Positions 13,306-62,330 of a stretch of DNA of 64,000 nt are shown here, piece by piece. Source of the stretch: Shigella phage SP18. The first letter of the stretch is position 1. Every line of letters starts with the position of its first letter. The position numbers and the translations under genes were made by a program. The notes beneath the pieces were generated by a model. It was given only the letters and a program-made list of their open reading frames with translations, searched no databases and was not told the DNA's origin. The stretch lies in the sequence record GQ981382; one strand, written 5' to 3'.

Positions 13306-13818
13306 TTATAGTTTTAAGGAATTTTCCGTTTGGTGGATATAATTTGTATCTTCTTCAAACGTGTATGCTTCAACAGCATGGCGCATATAAAACAGCGCAA
13401 TACCCATAACCTCTTTAAAGGTATCACAAAGAGCAACATCACCCTTGGTGGTTGGCTTGAACTTAATCTGCACACCATCATTCTTGATATTGATAATCAA
13501 GTTACTGGAGGTAAAATTATAGTTCTTGATGTTAACTGGAGCTTTACGAATACGAAGTCCAGCTGCCAGGATTTCCTTGATACTCTTACGAACTGTGACA
13601 CCAAACAAAAACGCAGGGCGGCGGCAGTAATCATTCAGAGAGTTAATTCTTACAATACGTTGACCATACCCCTGGGTGGCAGAACCAGATTTGATTTTGC
13701 CAAAGTTAACCAGAGAATTCATCGCAATAAGACGGGTTGCACGTCCTTCACGCTGTTCAAATCGAGAATATTCTTTACGTGTTTTAATGTTCATATCAGA
13801 GTCCAAATAATTTTTCAT
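13306..13818 (-). CDS. Hypothetical protein (170 aa)
   Basis: ORF track. Confidence 0.5.
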   Translation of the reverse strand: MKNYLDSDMNIKTRKEYSRFEQREGRATRLIAMNSLVNFGKIKSGSATQGYGQRIVRINSLNDYCRRPAFLFGVTVRKSIKEILAAGLRIRKAPVNIKNYNFTSSNLIINIKNDGVQIKFKPTTKGDVALCDTFKEVMGIALFYMRHAVEAYTFEEDTNYIHQTENSLKL

Positions 13819-37944: not shown

Positions 37945-38140
37945 TATTCACCTTTAGAGATTTTATCCATAACGAAAGAGATTGAACCAATTAAAAATGC
38001 AACTACTAAAGAGATTATATTCTCAGAAGTTGAAAGCATATTCAACATAAAGCCAGCAAACATGCTAAAACCAAAAAGCGGTAACAGCAACAAGGGCAGT
38101 AACATTTCTAATTAATTCGCAACGTTTCATTTTATTCTCC

Positions 38141-38520: not shown

Positions 38521-38529
38521 ATTACATTT

Positions 38530-38812
38530 TTACATTTTTGAACCACGAATTACACCATAAGCGGCGAAGTCGTCAGAAATATCTTTAGGAGAGTTCTTAC
38601 CAGTTTCAATGAAGGCAATGCTTGACTTCTGACTAAAAGAGGTAATTTTGTTATAGTTGGAGTCAAGGAAGGTATAACCATTTTTACGCAGCTGGTCAAA
38701 GTCTTCAGCGTCGCCTTTACCTTTGAAGTCAACCCATTTGTAGGTGTTTTTCTTCTGAAGACCCAGAGGCCAGGTAATTGTTTTCTACCAAAAATTCATG
38801 AAAAGTTTGCAT
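38530..38812 (-). pseudogene. Internal-protein-like gene interrupted by a +1 frame change at an A5 run
   Basis: N-terminal frame MQTFHEFLVENNYLASGSSEEKHLQMG stops; the adjacent frame continues ...WVDFKGKGDAEDFDQLRKNGY...IAFIETGKN... paralogous to the 26087-26350 product; removing one A restores a 93-aa ORF. Confidence 0.5.
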
Positions 38813-43463: not shown

Positions 43464-45247
43464 TTAATATGTCAGATAATGTAAGTTGGTTCGTCGGGGT
43501 TGTCGAAGACCGAATGGACCCACTTCAGCAAGGTCGTGTGCGTGTTCGTGTATGGGGTATGCATCCATATGAGAAAGCACAAGGGCCTGTTAAAGGTATC
43601 AGAACCGAAGACCTTCCTTGGATGTCTGTATTGATGCCGACATCATCTGCATCAGTTTCTGGGATTCAAACTGCCATGACTGGTATGGTCCCAGGTACTC
43701 AAGTATATGGTCACTTTTTAGACAAGTGGAAGCTCAACGGTCTTGTTATTGGTACGTATGGTTCAGCCTCAAGACAAAAGGCAAATCCTAACGAAGGCTT
43801 CTCTGACCCTACAGGACAATACCCGCTTTATGTTGGTAATGATGCTGCAGCGCTTAACCGTGGCGGTGAAGTCGGTTATGATGCAACTTCGAACGTAATT
43901 CAGGATGCGAACCTTGACCTTGGTATTAACCCAGATGGTCTTGATTTGAGCCAGGTTAAGCCTGATGATAATCCTAATTTCACAATTGAAAATATGCTCC
44001 ACCGTGATGAAGGTCTTCGACTGAAGGTATATTGGGACACCGAAGGTTATCCTACTATAGGCATAGGACACTTAATTGCACCACAACCTATTAGAGATAT
44101 GAATCAGATAAACAAAATATTATCTAATCAAATAGGCCGTGAAGTTAAAGGTAACCCTGGTGCAATATCAATGGACGAGGCTTCTAAGTTATTCCAAGAA
44201 GACCTTAAAAAAGTCCAAAACGATATAGGTAGGCATAGTGTTGTGGGTCCGGTTTATAATAAAGAAAACCGTTCGAGACAAATGGCTCTTGAAAACATGG
44301 CTTTCCAAATGGGATTAGGTGGATTGGCTAAATTCCGTGGAATGCTTAGCGCAATGTTAGTAGGTGATTATAAAAAAGCATTTGAGGAAGCTCGTAATTC
44401 AGTATGGTTTAACCAAACTAAAGGACGTGCATCAAGGGTATCAATGATTATCCTTACCGGTAATATGGAATCATATGGTATTATGGCTCCTAAAGAAAGG
44501 TCATTTAAAGGGCGTTCATATAGGATGATTCAAACCTTTGCAGCCCCTGCAAATTCTGACCCAGCCGACCCATGGACTCCAGAAGATACACGGATTCTAT
44601 TTAAAGAGCCAGAATCAAGTTACAAGGGCGAATATCCTTACGTGCAGACAATGCAAACTGAAGGCGGTCATATTCAGGAATTCGATAACACCCCTGGACA
44701 AGAACGTTATCGACTGATTCACCCAACCGGTTCCTACGAGGAAGTTGCACCAGATGGTCGTAAGACTTCGAAGACAGTGGCCGATGGTTATTATATGACC
44801 CAGGGTGATTCGAGTACTTACGTTGGTGGTAATAATAAAGTCAACGTTGGCGGTGATGAAACCTATTATAATATGGCTAATGTTCGTCGTCAGACCGATG
44901 GAAACGAAAGCATTCATATTCGTGGGAATGAAACCAAAACTGTAGAAGGTAATGGAACTTTGCTTGTTAAAGGAAATGTTAAAATAGTTATTATGGGTAC
45001 TGCTGATATAACTGTTGAACAAGAAGCATATATTACGGTTGAAAAAGATACAACAGTTAATGTCAACCAGAATGCAGATATAAGTGTTAAACAAAAGGCC
45101 ACAATCAATGCTCAAAATATGGATGTAAATGTCGAACAAGATTTAAATTTTGCAGCGACGAACATTAATTTAAACGCATCAAATACTGTGCATATGGATG
45201 GTGGTTCATTAGCTAAAGTATCTGGTGGCAACGTACAGGTCGGTTAA
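43460..45247 (+). CDS. 5: Baseplate hub subunit and tail lysozyme gp5
   Basis: 595 aa; N-terminal VGVVEDRMDPLQQGRVRVRVWGMHPYEKAQGP, lysozyme domain DEGLRLKVYWDTEGYPTIGIGHLI, C-terminal repetitive beta-helix region. Confidence 0.93.
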   Translation: MINMSDNVSWFVGVVEDRMDPLQQGRVRVRVWGMHPYEKAQGPVKGIRTEDLPWMSVLMPTSSASVSGIQTAMTGMVPGTQVYGHFLDKWKLNGLVIGTYGSASRQKANPNEGFSDPTGQYPLYVGNDAAALNRGGEVGYDATSNVIQDANLDLGINPDGLDLSQVKPDDNPNFTIENMLHRDEGLRLKVYWDTEGYPTIGIGHLIAPQPIRDMNQINKILSNQIGREVKGNPGAISMDEASKLFQEDLKKVQNDIGRHSVVGPVYNKENRSRQMALENMAFQMGLGGLAKFRGMLSAMLVGDYKKAFEEARNSVWFNQTKGRASRVSMIILTGNMESYGIMAPKERSFKGRSYRMIQTFAAPANSDPADPWTPEDTRILFKEPESSYKGEYPYVQTMQTEGGHIQEFDNTPGQERYRLIHPTGSYEEVAPDGRKTSKTVADGYYMTQGDSSTYVGGNNKVNVGGDETYYNMANVRRQTDGNESIHIRGNETKTVEGNGTLLVKGNVKIVIMGTADITVEQEAYITVEKDTTVNVNQNADISVKQKATINAQNMDVNVEQDLNFAATNINLNASNTVHMDGGSLAKVSGGNVQVG

Positions 45248-45248
45248 T

Positions 45249-47312
45249 ATGAATTACTACGATAAAGTTGATGAAGTGGTAGGGACTGTAACAAGTCCCT
45301 GTGATGACGCAGTAGGACCCGGTGAATATCGCCGGGTTAAATGGGAATTATATAACCCAACAGGTGCTTTTATTCAACCTGGGAATGGCGTTGAATGGGA
45401 TACCGAGATTATTCCACTAGCTACACATTTATACACACAAAATCCATTTGGTAATAAGTCCGAAACTTTTCCTGCACCTCCGCCGCCGGAAGATGGAACA
45501 AGTCAAGGTATCTGGTGTGCTAAACTCGGAATATTCTTTATTACGCAATTGGATTTAGAAAATTATGTAGAATCGATTGGTGCAACTCTTTTGTCCGGTA
45601 ATGATTGGTACGGTGCTGATTTATCAAAATCCGTATTGTATAAAACATCTATTGAATATGATATGTATCGCATCGAAAACTGTGGCGGTGTATGGACGTC
45701 ACAAGGCCCTAGAATGGACCCCAGGACGATGATTGCAGTTACGGCTGATTATCATATGTATGTCAACTTTAACGGCCTTGGTGACTCCCGCAGGGCTTAT
45801 TTGAAGTACTATGAGACAAAACCTTGTACTTATGTTGGACTGGTATTAAATCTAGATGTTGATATGAGTATCCCAGGAACTCCGATTCCGGGACCGGTAT
45901 CCATTGGGTCTTTACCGCCAGAAATAACCGGGCGAGCCAGGGCAATAAGCTGTGTTCCTTTTACAGCGGAATTCCCTTACAACGGATTGACCAATGCGAT
46001 TATGGCTTCATGGAATACATCTAGGAATTCATTCAAATTATATTGGGATATGCTCCCTGGATGGCCATCATCTGGTGGAACCGATTGGGAAAAATTCTTC
46101 GATTCTGGTTATAGTAAGCTATCGGTCGCAATGGAAGAGCTAGGCAACTCAGCTGTTGCTATGTGTCAATATGTTCAGCAAATGGCTTTTCTTGCATTTA
46201 AAGATGCCATATCACAGGTCTTGAATATTGTTGGCGGTGGGTGGGACTTACTTAAAAGCTTTTTACCCTCGATTACTATTATGGGCATGACTATTGACCT
46301 GGAAGACCTCTGCACTTCAGGTGATGGTGTACAGAAATTAAAAGAAGCATGGAAAAACTTTAATTTAGAAGAAACCATCCAATCGATTTATTCTGCCATT
46401 GGGTCGGCATACGATTATTCGGTTGAACGCGTCAAGATGTATTCGCGTGACCTTATTGATGCAATTACAGACTTGTATGACTGGGCCTGGTCTCAATTGC
46501 TTATGGCTGGTGTTGCATTATCAAAACTGTGTGTAGACCTCGCTCAAATATGGAGTATGCCTCCTATAGTTCCGAACCCAGTTTGGAGCGTTATTACTGC
46601 GGTCAAGGAAATGATGAAGCAAGTTAAACCACTGGACATGATAATGAGCGGTAACTTTCCAGGATTCACAGCATCAGATGTTTATCAAATGGTTATGGAA
46701 AAGGTAGACCAGAAAATAGACGAAGCTTATGCAATGATTGAGGCTCTTAAAACCAAGGCACTCAATCTGTGGAATGAGATTAAGCTCAAAAAGCAAGAAG
46801 TACAAAAACAAGCTATTGAATTTAAACAATATCTTTCAGGAATGTACGAAAAAGTTACAGACGAGCTAACTGCTCAGAAGGAAGCCGCATTATCACAAGC
46901 TGAAGCTGCACTTGAACTTTTAAAGAATAAATATAATCAGATTAAGAACTCTATTACCGAAAGTCAAACCTCTGTTTCTGATGTATTAGATATGGCTTTA
47001 GAAGAATTCAAAAAACTTCCTATTGTGGCTCAAATGGAAGAACTTCTCGGTATGCTCGGAGCTACTGTAGATGATATCATGGTTATATACGAGAACTCAG
47101 TAACTAAAGCAAAATCTTTATATCACGAATTTACTGATGGTTCCAGGTCAATGAAAGACTTGTGCAAATCAATGTATAACCAAATATCAACATTATCCTT
47201 AAGTAAGGTGGTACAATGGATTAATAAGATGCTGGGAATATTCGGTTTAACGATTGCATTTCCATCCCTTTCCATTTGCATACCTTGTTTAGAATCTCCT
47301 ACTAGGAATTAA
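45249..47312 (+). CDS. Large hypothetical protein (687 aa) in the gene 5 to gene 6 interval; coiled-coil and C-terminal hydrophobic segment
   Basis: Single uninterrupted ORF from ATG 45249 (MNYYDKVDEV) to 1 nt before gene 6; no PAAR-like Gly-rich repeats recognised. Confidence 0.7.
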   Translation: MNYYDKVDEVVGTVTSPCDDAVGPGEYRRVKWELYNPTGAFIQPGNGVEWDTEIIPLATHLYTQNPFGNKSETFPAPPPPEDGTSQGIWCAKLGIFFITQLDLENYVESIGATLLSGNDWYGADLSKSVLYKTSIEYDMYRIENCGGVWTSQGPRMDPRTMIAVTADYHMYVNFNGLGDSRRAYLKYYETKPCTYVGLVLNLDVDMSIPGTPIPGPVSIGSLPPEITGRARAISCVPFTAEFPYNGLTNAIMASWNTSRNSFKLYWDMLPGWPSSGGTDWEKFFDSGYSKLSVAMEELGNSAVAMCQYVQQMAFLAFKDAISQVLNIVGGGWDLLKSFLPSITIMGMTIDLEDLCTSGDGVQKLKEAWKNFNLEETIQSIYSAIGSAYDYSVERVKMYSRDLIDAITDLYDWAWSQLLMAGVALSKLCVDLAQIWSMPPIVPNPVWSVITAVKEMMKQVKPLDMIMSGNFPGFTASDVYQMVMEKVDQKIDEAYAMIEALKTKALNLWNEIKLKKQEVQKQAIEFKQYLSGMYEKVTDELTAQKEAALSQAEAALELLKNKYNQIKNSITESQTSVSDVLDMALEEFKKLPIVAQMEELLGMLGATVDDIMVIYENSVTKAKSLYHEFTDGSRSMKDLCKSMYNQISTLSLSKVVQWINKMLGIFGLTIAFPSLSICIPCLESPTRN

Positions 47313-53396: not shown

Positions 53397-53420
53397 GGGA
53401 CCTTCGGGTCCCTTTTTATT
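53397..53420 (+). terminator. Rho-independent terminator
   Basis: gggacc-ttcg-ggtccc followed by ttttta. Confidence 0.65.
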
Positions 53421-53456: not shown

Positions 53457-54326
53457 ATGATTAATCAAACCCCAAAACTTTTAATAGATGTCGGCGAAAT
53501 TGGTAACGCCAGCACCGGCGATATCTTATATGATGGTGGTCGTAAAATTAACGAAGATTTTAATAACGTCTATAATACCTTCGGTGACCAACGTCTTTAT
53601 TCAATCGATAACGGCCAGAACTCTCAGGTCTTGCATGCTACAGGTTATTATCAAAAAGCAACAAACATAATCGAATGGAACACTCCTGTTGCGCTTGGTT
53701 CTCTCCGCGATGTCGATACCTCCAAGGGTGTTGTTACTGCCAGGATTGCCCGCGGTAAAATGGGTGAAGGTATTATCTTCATTAACTCTAACGGGACTTT
53801 ATCACCAACTCAATCTCTGGAAATCGAACTTCAAGGCACAGATACTTTCGTTTCGGCTCCGACCAACAAAATTCGCTTCACAAGCCCTTATACAAAGATT
53901 ACTCTTTGGTGTATCGATGACGCAAACGGCGTTGGCACCTGGGATTATTCAATCGAAAATATGTTTGGTGTAAAACATATTCCTTTGGACCGAACTTATA
54001 ATATCGGTCTGAACGCAAGAGATATTCCGATTGCATTGCGCGGTGATTTCAAAACAATGAAACTTTTGTTAACCGCTATATCTACTGATGAAACTAAATA
54101 CAAAGCATCAGAGGTCATGCTCTTTGTAGACACTCAAGCTAACCAAGTGTATAGCACAGAATACGGTGTATTGCGTCGTGGTCACGTGGATGACGATGAT
54201 GAGTTATATACCATTAACTTTAAAATAGGCGCTGACAACTTCGTTACGGCGACCGTAAGCGCACCAGTCTCCATGAAGCTCGCCATTAAGGTAGCCGAGA
54301 CACAAACCATTGGGGTAGCAATCTAA
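53457..54326 (+). CDS. 9: Baseplate wedge / long-tail-fibre socket protein gp9
   Basis: 289 aa; GEIGNASTGDIL, HATGYYQK, YSIENMFG, VSAPVSMKLAIKV resemble recalled T4 gp9. Confidence 0.9.
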   Translation: MINQTPKLLIDVGEIGNASTGDILYDGGRKINEDFNNVYNTFGDQRLYSIDNGQNSQVLHATGYYQKATNIIEWNTPVALGSLRDVDTSKGVVTARIARGKMGEGIIFINSNGTLSPTQSLEIELQGTDTFVSAPTNKIRFTSPYTKITLWCIDDANGVGTWDYSIENMFGVKHIPLDRTYNIGLNARDIPIALRGDFKTMKLLLTAISTDETKYKASEVMLFVDTQANQVYSTEYGVLRRGHVDDDDELYTINFKIGADNFVTATVSAPVSMKLAIKVAETQTIGVAI

Positions 54327-56136
54327 TGAAACAAAATTTAAAAATAGGCGTGATGGTCGATGATGGTACCGGCGATTATCTTCGTCTCGGCGGCCAAAAA
54401 TTAATAATAACTTTGATGACCTTTACTACCAGCTCGGTGATGGAGAAAATCCTCATGCTGCTGGTGCATGGAAAACATGGTCAGTAGCCGACGGTACAAC
54501 TCTGGAAGCCGTTATGGGTCGTAGCTATGCAGTGAATACCTCAAATGGTATGATTACTGTTAAGCTTCCTAAAGGAACTCCGTCTGAATATAATTACGTT
54601 ATTCGTTTGCGTGATGTGTTTGCAACTTGGCAAGTCTCCCCGGTGACGATTGTTCCGGCTGTTGGCGACACAATGAAAGGTTCTCCTGACCCTGTTGTTA
54701 TCCGTCGTAACCTGGCAGATATCGAACTGGTTTATTGCTCTCCTGGCCGTTGGGAATATATTGACAACAAACAGATTGACAAGATTTCGAATAACGACGT
54801 GGCAACTGTTGAGACCCAGCAATTCATCGCAACAGAAGGTCAAACGGACTTCCTGGATGTGTTTAATGGTCGTCCTTATAACATTGCAAGTCTCGAAGTT
54901 AAACATCGTGGTAACGACCTGTTTTATGGCAAAGATGATATTTTCGACCCGGTGAATGCTGAATTCGGTTCGCCTGGTGCAGCGCCTGGTGAAATTGTAA
55001 CCCTTGACGGTCGCAATATTCGTTTACGTATGCCTTGTGCAGCTGGTGACACGGTTATTGTCAGAACATTCAACGATGGTATTGCTCAGTATCGTAGTTC
55101 TTATAACCGTCGAGATGTTCAAATCCGTGATTCGAAATTTACTCTTGAAACCCCGGTCGAAGGCTCTTTGGTTGTAGCTGATTTATCTACTAAACACACA
55201 TTTATGGTTACTGAACTTGCGGTATCTCCTAGCAGTCCAATTAACCCGAATGCATGTGAAGTTTATATCAACAGCATATTACAGCACGAAGCAGGAACTG
55301 CAAACTATCCAGCTTATACATGCGAAGGTGCTAATGGTGACACTGCAGAAGAGTGTACAGATAATGGTGGTCAATGGGCTAAATCAAAAGAAGACTATAT
55401 AACAACCTTTGATGAAGACAACCGTATTGAATCTTTTGAGTTTGCTCGCACATTTGAAGATGGTGATATTCTGTCTATCGTTTGGTATAATAACGATATT
55501 GGCACCACAATGACTCTTGATGAAATTACAGATGAAACAAATAACATCTATGTTTCCCAGGGTCCAGAAGTTTCAATCACCGGTGATATAAGAATTACGG
55601 ATTACGATAATCCATTTGCTCCTAACCTGGAACCGGTTGACCCGAGCGAAATTAAACCATCTGCTGTTTCGATTCTCTTTAATATGTTCCATCCAATTGG
55701 CACAATTTACGAGAATACGACTAACCCAAATAACCCTGCGACATATATGGGTATGGGAACATGGAAGCGACTTGAAGAGCGTGTTTTGATTGGTTGGTCT
55801 GCTGACCCAGCCTCAAACTTCCATACAAACAATAACGACCTGGATTCTTCTGGTGTTCCGCAGGCAACCGCAGGGGGTACTGGTGGTAATGTACAAATTC
55901 ACATTAAACCAACCAATATTCCTAAAATTCAGACCGATGAAAAAGTATTGGTAGCTGATGCAACTGGCCCAATTATTGTTGGTGGTTGCCTGATTGACCC
56001 GGATGCACAAGGTCCTGCTTATACAAACTATCGCGAAGATTATGCGACTATTAATGAAGCTCTTGACCCACTGGCACAGCCAATAGATACGCTTCCTCCA
56101 TATTTGATTGTTTACCGTTGGGTAAGGATTGCATAA
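54326..56136 (+). CDS. 10: Baseplate wedge protein gp10; reading frame interrupted at an A5 run near 54393-54397
   Basis: Frame from ATG 54326 gives MKQNLKIGVMVDDGTGDYLRLGG then stops at 54485; the adjacent frame continues NNNFDDLYYQLGDGENPHAAGAWK...YLIVYRWVRIA collinear with recalled T4 gp10; one extra A would restore a 603-aa ORF. Confidence 0.85.
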
Positions 56137-59971: not shown

Positions 59972-60910
59972 ATGGCAACTGAATCATACAACCCGAAACA
60001 ATTAAAAGATGCAATCCTTCGTCGTCTTGGTGCTCCAATCACGAATATCGAAGTTACGACCGAACAGGTTTATGATTGTATCCAGCGCGCATTAGAATTA
60101 TATGGCGAATATCATTATAATGGCTATAACAAAGGTTATCAGGCTTTTTATATCGGTCATGATGAAGTTTCACAACAGAAATTCCGTGATGGTGTTTTCG
60201 ATTTAAAAGGTCGTAATATTTTTGCAGTAACGCAGATTATTCGTACTAACGTCGGTTCATTAACTTCGATGGATGGTCAAGCAACATATCCATGGTTCAC
60301 AGATTTCGTTCTGGGGCTGGCTGGTATTAATGGTGGAATGGGTAGTTCGTGTAATAGTTTTGGTCCAAATGCTTTTGGGGCAGACCTTGGTTATTTTACA
60401 CAGCTTATGCAATATCGTTCGATGATGCAAGACCTGATGGTTCCACTTCCAGATTACTGGTATAATGACGATACGGAACAACTTAAAATTATGGGCAACT
60501 TCCGTCAGGGAGATGTTATTGTAATTGAAGTTTACACCAAATCCTTTAATGGTGTTGATGCAATGGCCAGCAATACTGCGGGTTACGGTTATGCTTCTGG
60601 TGATTGTTCAAATCCATGGAATGCTGGTGCACAGTGGGATAACCCTGCACGCAGAATAAGCGGTATGAGAGCCGGTGAGGACTTCGGACTTCAAGATGGC
60701 GCATACAACAACCGTTGGGTGAAAGACTATGCCACGGCACTCGTTAAGGAAGTTAACGGCAACGTATTGGCTAAACACCAGGGAATGATGATGCCAGGTG
60801 GTGTCACAGTTGATGGTGTCCGTTTAATCGAAGAAGCTCGCATGGAAAAAGAACGTCTTCGCGAAGAACTTGACCTGCTGGATGCACCGGCTGGAATACT
60901 AATTGGGTGA
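59972..60910 (+). CDS. 13: Neck protein gp13
   Basis: 312 aa; synteny wac-13-14. Confidence 0.85.
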
Positions 60911-60913
60911 TTA

Positions 60914-61549
60914 ATGACTACATACTATAGACTTTATGTATCAACATTTGAAACATCTAATGGGATAATGGTATATGGCGGTAAACGCCATTCACATTAT
61001 GAAGATTCTAAAGCGGATAGTTATTTCGGTTCTGGTACTATTGTCAAGCGAGCTAAACAAAAATACGGAAGGAAATGTTTAGTCGACATTACATGGTCTA
61101 AACCTTTTGAATCGCCTGCTCTATTAAAAGAAGCCGAAGCCTTACTAGTCAGTGAGCTTTTAGAAAGTTTCGATAATTGTGCAAATTTACATCCAACAGG
61201 GGGAGGTGGACCAGAAGGTTATAGTTGTCCAGAAGATTCCCCTGCCTTTGGTAAAAAGAGAACAGCAGAATCAAGAAAACGAATGTCAGACGCAGCAAAA
61301 CAAAGGGAATGGTCAGAAGAAGGATTAAAACGTCGTAAAGAATCAACAGCTCGAATGTGGATTGATTTTAAGGACAGACATCCAGATTTTTCTGATGATA
61401 AAAATCCGGCCGCGCGTAAAATTATTACCGGCGACCTAGAATTTTGTACCGGAAGAAAATGTGCAGAATATTATTCGATAACACCGGCGACGGTCATTTA
61501 CAGATGTAAAAGTACAGCCGAAAAATGGAAATTATGGAATTATGCGTAA
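60914..61549 (+). CDS. Putative GIY-YIG homing endonuclease (Seg-like), free-standing between genes 13 and 14
   Basis: 211 aa; N-terminal YYRLYV...GIMVYGGKR...YFGSG...E-rich helix...N fits GIY-YIG spacing; basic repeats [33 protein letters not shown] resemble NUMOD3-type DNA-binding modules. Confidence 0.6.
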
Positions 61550-62330
61550 TTCTTATGATGCAAGCTTATTCGCTCGGCTCGAAGATGGAACCGGGTATGA
61601 CAATACAAACTCGTCAGAGATACTCAACCAATATGTAAACTTTATGCATCATGAAAATACCCAGACTTTAGCAGATGCTATTGTTGCTGAAAGTATTCAG
61701 ATGCGCGGAATGTCTCTCTATTATATCCCAAGACAATTCGTTAAACCAGATTTGTTATTCGGTGAAGACCTCCAGAGTAAATTTGATAAAGCATGGAAAT
61801 TTGCTGGTTATCTGGATACGTTCGATGCTTATCAGGGTGATGGTTCTATCTTTAGTAAATGGGGTATGTCTGTGAACGATGAAATCACAATATCGATTAA
61901 CCCTAATCTGTTTAAACACCAATGCAATGGAACTGAACCTATTGCCGGGGATTTGATTTATTTCCCTCTTGATAACAGCCTGTTCGAGATAACCTGGGTG
62001 CAACCTTATGACCCGTTCTATCAGGTAGGTCAAAACGCCATTCGTAAAATAACTGCGAGCAAATACATTTACTCCGGGGAAGAGCTTAAACCTGAATTAC
62101 AACGAAATGAAGGTATTAATATTTCAGAATTCAGTGAGCTCGATTTGCAACCAATCCACAATATCGATGGCCTTACAGATATCAGCGATATCCCTTATGC
62201 AGAATCCGATGAGATTAACGCAGAAGCGGCTGAATATGTTAAACCATATTTTGTGCAGAACGGTCGTGGACTTGAGTCTCCTCCTAAGGCAAAACAGGAT
62301 AGCTTTGACGATAGTTTCTTTGACGAATAA
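61542..62330 (+). CDS. 14: Neck protein gp14
   Basis: 262 aa; synteny; start overlaps the endonuclease gene end. Confidence 0.85.

Follow-up and report, generated by a model that had tools for sequence, protein, structure and literature searches.

Gene 10 and its reading frame in the SP18 record

The DNA analysed here is a 64,000-nucleotide stretch (hereafter the window) of the 170,605-bp genome of Shigella phage SP18 (GQ981382). Gene 9, encoding the 289-aa baseplate connector of the long tail fibres, occupies positions 53457-54326 of the plus strand, and its TAA stop codon (54324-54326) overlaps the ATG of gene 10 (54326-54328) in a TAATG junction. Gene 10 itself is flanked by genes 9 and 11 within the cluster of baseplate wedge genes. 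Translation from this ATG gives a 53-aa open reading frame (54326-54487, plus strand), annotated as hypothetical protein SP18gp170, of which only codons 1-25 (54326-54400) represent the genuine N-terminus of gp10, MKQNLKIGVMVDDGTGDYLRLGGQK. The zero frame then continues as LIITLMTF..., and the last 28 codons of the 53-aa frame are out of frame up to the TAG/TGA at 54485-54487.

The frame breaks at a run of five A residues at 54396-54400 (plus strand). A position ruler and pattern search gave its context as CC-AAAAA-TT, with the codon CAA at 54395-54397 and AAA at 54398-54400. The remainder of gene 10, 578 codons (26-603) and the stop codon, sits on the plus strand in the -1 frame at 54400-56136 and begins with ATT (Ile26). 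The frame of 54325 translates as ...PKINNNFDDLYYQLGDGENPHAAGAWKTW... and ...PKINNNFDDLYYQLGDGENPHAAGAWK..., is free of stop codons as far as 56136 and runs on into the 540-aa reading frame (54514-56136, plus strand) annotated as gp10. This shorter frame starts at Met64, the ATG at 54514 being the first canonical start in the -1 frame, and is without the first 63 residues of the protein (PF07880 profile positions 1-75). Since the frame break is read directly from the sequence, chance is not at issue, and the break is really present in the deposited record.

The initial annotation had reported a gene 10 broken at an A5 run, the TAATG overlap with gene 9, a stop at 54485 and a remainder of about 580 residues displaced by one base, all of which agreed with the sequence and the list of open reading frames. 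Two of its details needed correction: the run had been placed at 54393-54397, 3 nt too far to the left, and 23 rather than 25 gp10 residues had been counted ahead of the break.

The products of the 53-aa frame, the 540-aa frame, gene 9 and gene 12 matched SP18 proteins ADO19510.1, ADO19511.1, ADO19509.1 and ADO19513.1 exactly. The SP18 record annotates the break as two genes, one for the hypothetical protein SP18gp170 and one for a 540-aa "baseplate wedge subunit and tail pin." Among about 15 billion proteins, the 53-aa product clustered with no other. Of the 15 members listed for the gp10 cluster at 90% identity, 13 were 603 aa long; SP18 has 540 aa and P896 has 594 aa, the P896 gene starting right at the end of its record.

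Properties of the repaired gp10

Insertion of a single A restored a 603-aa protein that differed from the gp10 of VR20, CJ20, VR25 and VR7 at 7-13 of 603 positions, which bears out the earlier proposal that one extra A would restore gp10. The gp10 of CJ20, which agrees with the repaired SP18 protein at each of the first 63 residues, aligned end to end with T4 gp10 (residues 1-603 against 1-602, E about 1e-220). The repaired reading frame contained all four Pfam domains of gp10 (PF07880, PF23618, PF22670, and PF21939), and the deposited frames held mere fragments of PF07880. The match to PF07880 scored 137.5 bits (profile positions 1-174) in the repaired protein and 66.9 bits (positions 76-174) when translation began at Met64, and the 53-aa frame covered profile positions 1-25 only. 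The repaired SP18 product thus resembles T4 gp10, the baseplate wedge subunit and tail pin (PDB 2FL8, 5IV5, 5HX2), over its full length, and gene 10 is likewise flanked by genes 9 and 11 in T4; unlike in T4, the SP18 frame as deposited breaks after codon 25. Codon 556 of gp10 (window positions ~55990-55992) was Gln in the 11 relatives checked.

[quoted passage not shown] Given ordered assembly and fibre attachment, a phage with a null or N-terminally truncated gp10 would not be expected to propagate. The view of the initial annotation that a true gene 10 null is unlikely in a viable phage therefore stands.

The same site in related phages

A megablast search returned 11 records with 95-99% identity, and every full-length match was one base longer than the SP18 segment (1002 vs. 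1001). Further relatives came from a pattern built on upstream sequence, which recovered VR20 only, and from a protein search (six viral loci and one metagenome locus). Alignment of the site revealed six A residues in phage 212, VR20, VR7, TH54 and VR25, and in two contigs with 73% protein identity (CAA AAA ATA). The run was also A6 in 12 distinct Logan metagenome contigs whose gp9 is identical to that of SP18 and in which a 603-aa gp10 was called. These contigs are of the Illumina era; ten belonged to a first set, and L029 and L030 were added from a second set of four, whose other two members duplicate contigs of the first set. All relatives examined (five isolate genomes, two distant contigs, and 12 metagenome contigs) thus had A6 and an intact 603-aa gp10. 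A pattern scan of IMG/VR for the A5 version of the site gave 0 matches.

The 5' segment of gene 10 is identical to that of phage 212 save for the missing A. One metagenome contig (L018) matched the window over 6.87 kb at 99.67% identity, with two gaps only, both of them in homopolymers. Contig L029 has the particular gene order of SP18 and was collinear with the window over 20.5 kb at 97.5% identity; the sole 1-bp gap between them was the A run of gene 10. In distant T4-like phages the codons at the site are AAA AAA ATC, TTA AAA TTA or CAA AAG ATT. The run itself differs among T4-like phages (AAAAAAA, TTAAAATTA, CAAAAGATT) and the amino acids are kept; conservation of the amino acids and not of the run indicates that the A run is a by-product of codon choice and carries no signal.

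The comparisons also brought out differences in gene content. Between gp5 (595 aa) and gp6, the window contains a plus-strand reading frame of 695 aa (45225-47312) that belongs to phrog_5296, of unknown function, with no solid Pfam domain. In its place, gp5.1 and the PAAR protein gp5.4 are present in VR20, phage 212 and most metagenome relatives, and contig L029 has the same 695-aa exchange as SP18. About 660 bp between genes 13 and 14 (60892-61552) are missing in VR20, and the corresponding interval of L029 holds a 211-aa reading frame without a Pfam match; the insert between genes 13 and 14 is possibly of a mobile or homing type.

Other private indels in the window

Frame splits were sought throughout the window by tblastn with the open reading frames of VR20, TH54 and phage 212. 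Four annotated genes were split, namely gp10, an NrdC.5-like gene, a homologue of Trna.4 and a VR7_gp154-like gene. The NrdC.5-like gene (minus strand, about 13818-12917), which encodes 306 aa in VR20, lies in two frames in the window, and the change is at a run of four T at 13322-13325 where VR20, TH54 and phage 212 have five; this split is probably another homopolymer error. The 61-aa Trna.4 homologue (minus strand, 38130-37947) is split at a run of five A (38073-38077) where the three relatives have four. The changes in gp10, NrdC.5-like and Trna.4 were private to the window, and the three genes were intact in all three relatives. Two further genes of the window have probably been split in the same way as gene 10. 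The initial annotation had called the gene 10 break the second change of frame at an A5 run in the window. There is indeed another such change, with the A5 read on the plus strand at 38073-38077, and this site may be the one it had in mind; the count is extended by a third homopolymer change, in the T run at 13322-13325.

VR20 and phage 212 showed 0 frame splits against each other. In the record of phage 212 (PQ765507.1), most minus-strand structural genes are labelled as misc_feature "similar to ..." and not as CDS. These labels were considered as possible frameshifts and rejected on the same count of 0 against VR20; they are a quirk of annotation.

The number of private 1-bp indels was compared in a four-way screen that counted positions where all three other genomes agree. 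Five were found in the SP18 window, together with 223 private substitutions. Phage 212, the closest relative, had one private indel with 227 private substitutions, VR20 one with 548 and TH54 four with 797. Gap placement and a mismatch nearby hid the gene 10 and NrdC.5 sites from the screen; both were confirmed by hand, and the resulting total of at least seven in the window is a lower bound. Six of the seven fall in A/T runs 4-7 long, insertions as well as deletions are represented, and four are intergenic (53406-53417, 9260, 35556, and 36630). The rate amounts to about 0.011% of bases and about three genes in 64 kb of DNA with 40% GC. Between genes 8 and 9 the length of the T run varies in nature, two of ten metagenome contigs having T5, and not every private indel need therefore be an error.

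The fourth split gene has a lesion of another kind. A private 17-bp deletion between GCCAGGT direct repeats (near 38776) truncates the VR7_gp154-like gene, and its appearance suggests either a true deletion mediated by the repeats or a collapse in the assembly. If genuine, it means that the SP18 stock may carry some real lesions. An 8-bp tandem duplication, ACATTTTT, is common to SP18 and phage 212; the deletion and the duplication lie at ~38766-38780 and 38524-38539.

Origin of the frame break

The one-base difference, its uniqueness to the SP18 record, the sequencing chemistry of that record and its excess of private homopolymer changes are established here. The chemistry is known from the passage of a review (PMC3694061), citing Kim et al. 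2010 (J Microbiol 48:213), according to which the SP18 genome was obtained by pyrosequencing. Other papers in which SP18 is mentioned are silent on gene 10. Consensus errors in 454 data affect 0.03-0.04% of bases; homopolymers account for more than 97% of them and A/T runs for more than 95%, and about 60% fall in runs of at least 5 (PMC1564139). Homopolymer errors are found in 2.1-2.8% of genes, more in low-GC DNA (PMC3277595). The difference between A5 and A6 is itself a change of one base inside an A/T homopolymer of five or more, and the pattern and rate of indels in the window match these published errors. SP18 is like other cases of 454 homopolymer error in having a ±1 change in an A/T run of about 5-6 that is private to one pyrosequenced record, companion ±1 changes in further A/T runs, an artificial frameshift and a split gene call. 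We observed no respect in which it differs, the SP18 case being known here from the consensus sequence.

These comparisons suggest, with a probability that we put at roughly 0.9, that the gene 10 break is a homopolymer undercall in a pyrosequencing assembly and that no biological frameshift is involved. The 454-type chemistry would have miscounted the length of the run and the consensus would have dropped one A. The phage itself would have A6 at 54396-54400 (GGC CAA AAA ATT) and make a normal 603-aa gp10 without recoding. Loss of the A would then have led the annotators to call a 53-aa "hypothetical protein" and a truncated 540-aa "gp10." The initial annotation had considered an assembly error hiding a true A6, and the presence of A6 throughout the related genomes points the same way.

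A genuine biological origin, through non-templated insertion of A or through frameshifting, had also been put forward there. It is not supported, given A6 in all relatives, a record that the cited passage describes as pyrosequenced, the absence of a recoding signal at the site and the other private ±1 homopolymer changes by which the same record breaks conserved genes. In its most plausible form, the sequenced stock would have undergone a real deletion from A6 to A5 and would obtain gp10 by unprogrammed -1 slippage of tRNA-Lys on A_AAA, by slippage of RNA polymerase or from A6 revertants in a mixed population. In T4-type phages, frameshift mutation has natural hotspots at runs of A (Streisinger-type slippage). 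Within the run, tRNA-Lys finds a perfect match one base back, so that CAA AAA U would be decoded as CA AAA AUU, and the -1 product would be exactly GGQKINNN..., with the junction-spanning peptide LGGQKINNNFDDLYYQLGDGENPHAAGAWK; the window also has at least one genuine-looking lesion, the 17-bp repeat-mediated deletion. Such a deletion is nevertheless improbable. Wedge assembly stalls without a component and each tail takes 18 copies of gp10 (PMC3004832), so with slippage of about one percent the phage would presumably make very little gp10 and its burst size would collapse, and the stock should then quickly be taken over by A6 revertants. The 5' segment of the gene, matching phage 212 as it does, has undergone no decay. 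The site has no full X_XXY_YYZ heptamer, and the upstream CAA would have to re-pair on CCA. Efficient transcriptional slippage is known from runs longer than A5, and recoding by this route typically from runs of 8 or more A/T that are conserved out of frame; no A run in the window exceeds 7 and this one has 5, and the relatives are in frame with A6. That SP18 is truly A5 and survives because tRNA-Lys (or RNA polymerase) makes unprogrammed -1 slips at CAA AAA U is a very improbable version of this account.

Two other explanations take the deposited sequence as correct, and both were rejected. According to one, no frameshift is needed, since gp10 starts at the ATG at 54514 (Met64) and the 540-aa protein is functional. 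This is the start annotated in the SP18 record, the first canonical one in the frame, with a weak GGAAG 5 nt upstream. The missing 63 residues, however, show high conservation with T4 gp10 and do not vary among the close relatives, and their loss removes PF07880 positions 1-75, lowers the match from 137.5 to 66.9 bits and cuts into the domain to which the short tail fibre attaches (PMC3004832). Codons 26-63 are open and intact in the -1 frame with 0 private substitutions, as expected only if they are translated, and relatives that make the 603-aa protein have Met64 in an unchanged context. The domain truncation and the conservation of residues 1-63 make initiation at Met64, which the initial annotation had allowed for, more doubtful still than survival by slippage. 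The remaining explanation, a programmed and selected -1 recoding site in gene 10, seems to us the least credible of all and is in effect refuted by the comparison with relatives. The 73 nt from 54398 to 54470 do fold, with a hairpin at 54427-54466 (z = -3.5 vs. shuffles), but this hairpin, the only notable one downstream, starts 26 nt past the run. Stimulators of frameshifting usually lie about 5-9 nt downstream. Nor is the hairpin conserved: among eight aligned homologues the consensus fold was -2.49 kcal/mol with a covariation penalty. No slippery heptamer of the form X_XXY_YYZ was found at GGC CAA AAA U, where the AAA tRNA alone re-pairs and CAA/CCA leaves a mismatch, and an Rfam search at the gene 10 site gave no match. 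The break is missing from every relative examined, and the run varies among T4-like phages while the residues it encodes do not. With programmed -1 frameshifting as in Escherichia coli dnaX (A_AAA_AAG) and the phage tail chaperones G/GT, SP18 shares an A-rich site at which tRNA-Lys can slip; unlike these systems, it has neither a full heptamer nor a conserved, properly spaced stimulator, the break is not conserved, and the 53-aa zero-frame product has no plausible function. From the comparison as a whole, we infer that the one-base difference arose in the sequencing and not in the phage.

Significance

If the A5 run were real, SP18 would obtain an essential baseplate protein present in 18 copies from leaky frameshifting at a short run of A, and it would be unusual for an essential structural gene to be sustained by unprogrammed frameshifting in this way. 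With a homopolymer undercall as the preferred reading, the main value of the finding lies in curation. Through GQ981382 and its counterpart NC_014595, the truncated 540-aa "gp10" spreads into RefSeq and UniProt, and the spurious 53-aa "hypothetical protein SP18gp170" is propagated likewise. SP18 is the type genome of Gaprivervirus, and these sites should be repaired before the genome enters pangenome, core-gene or pseudogene counts.
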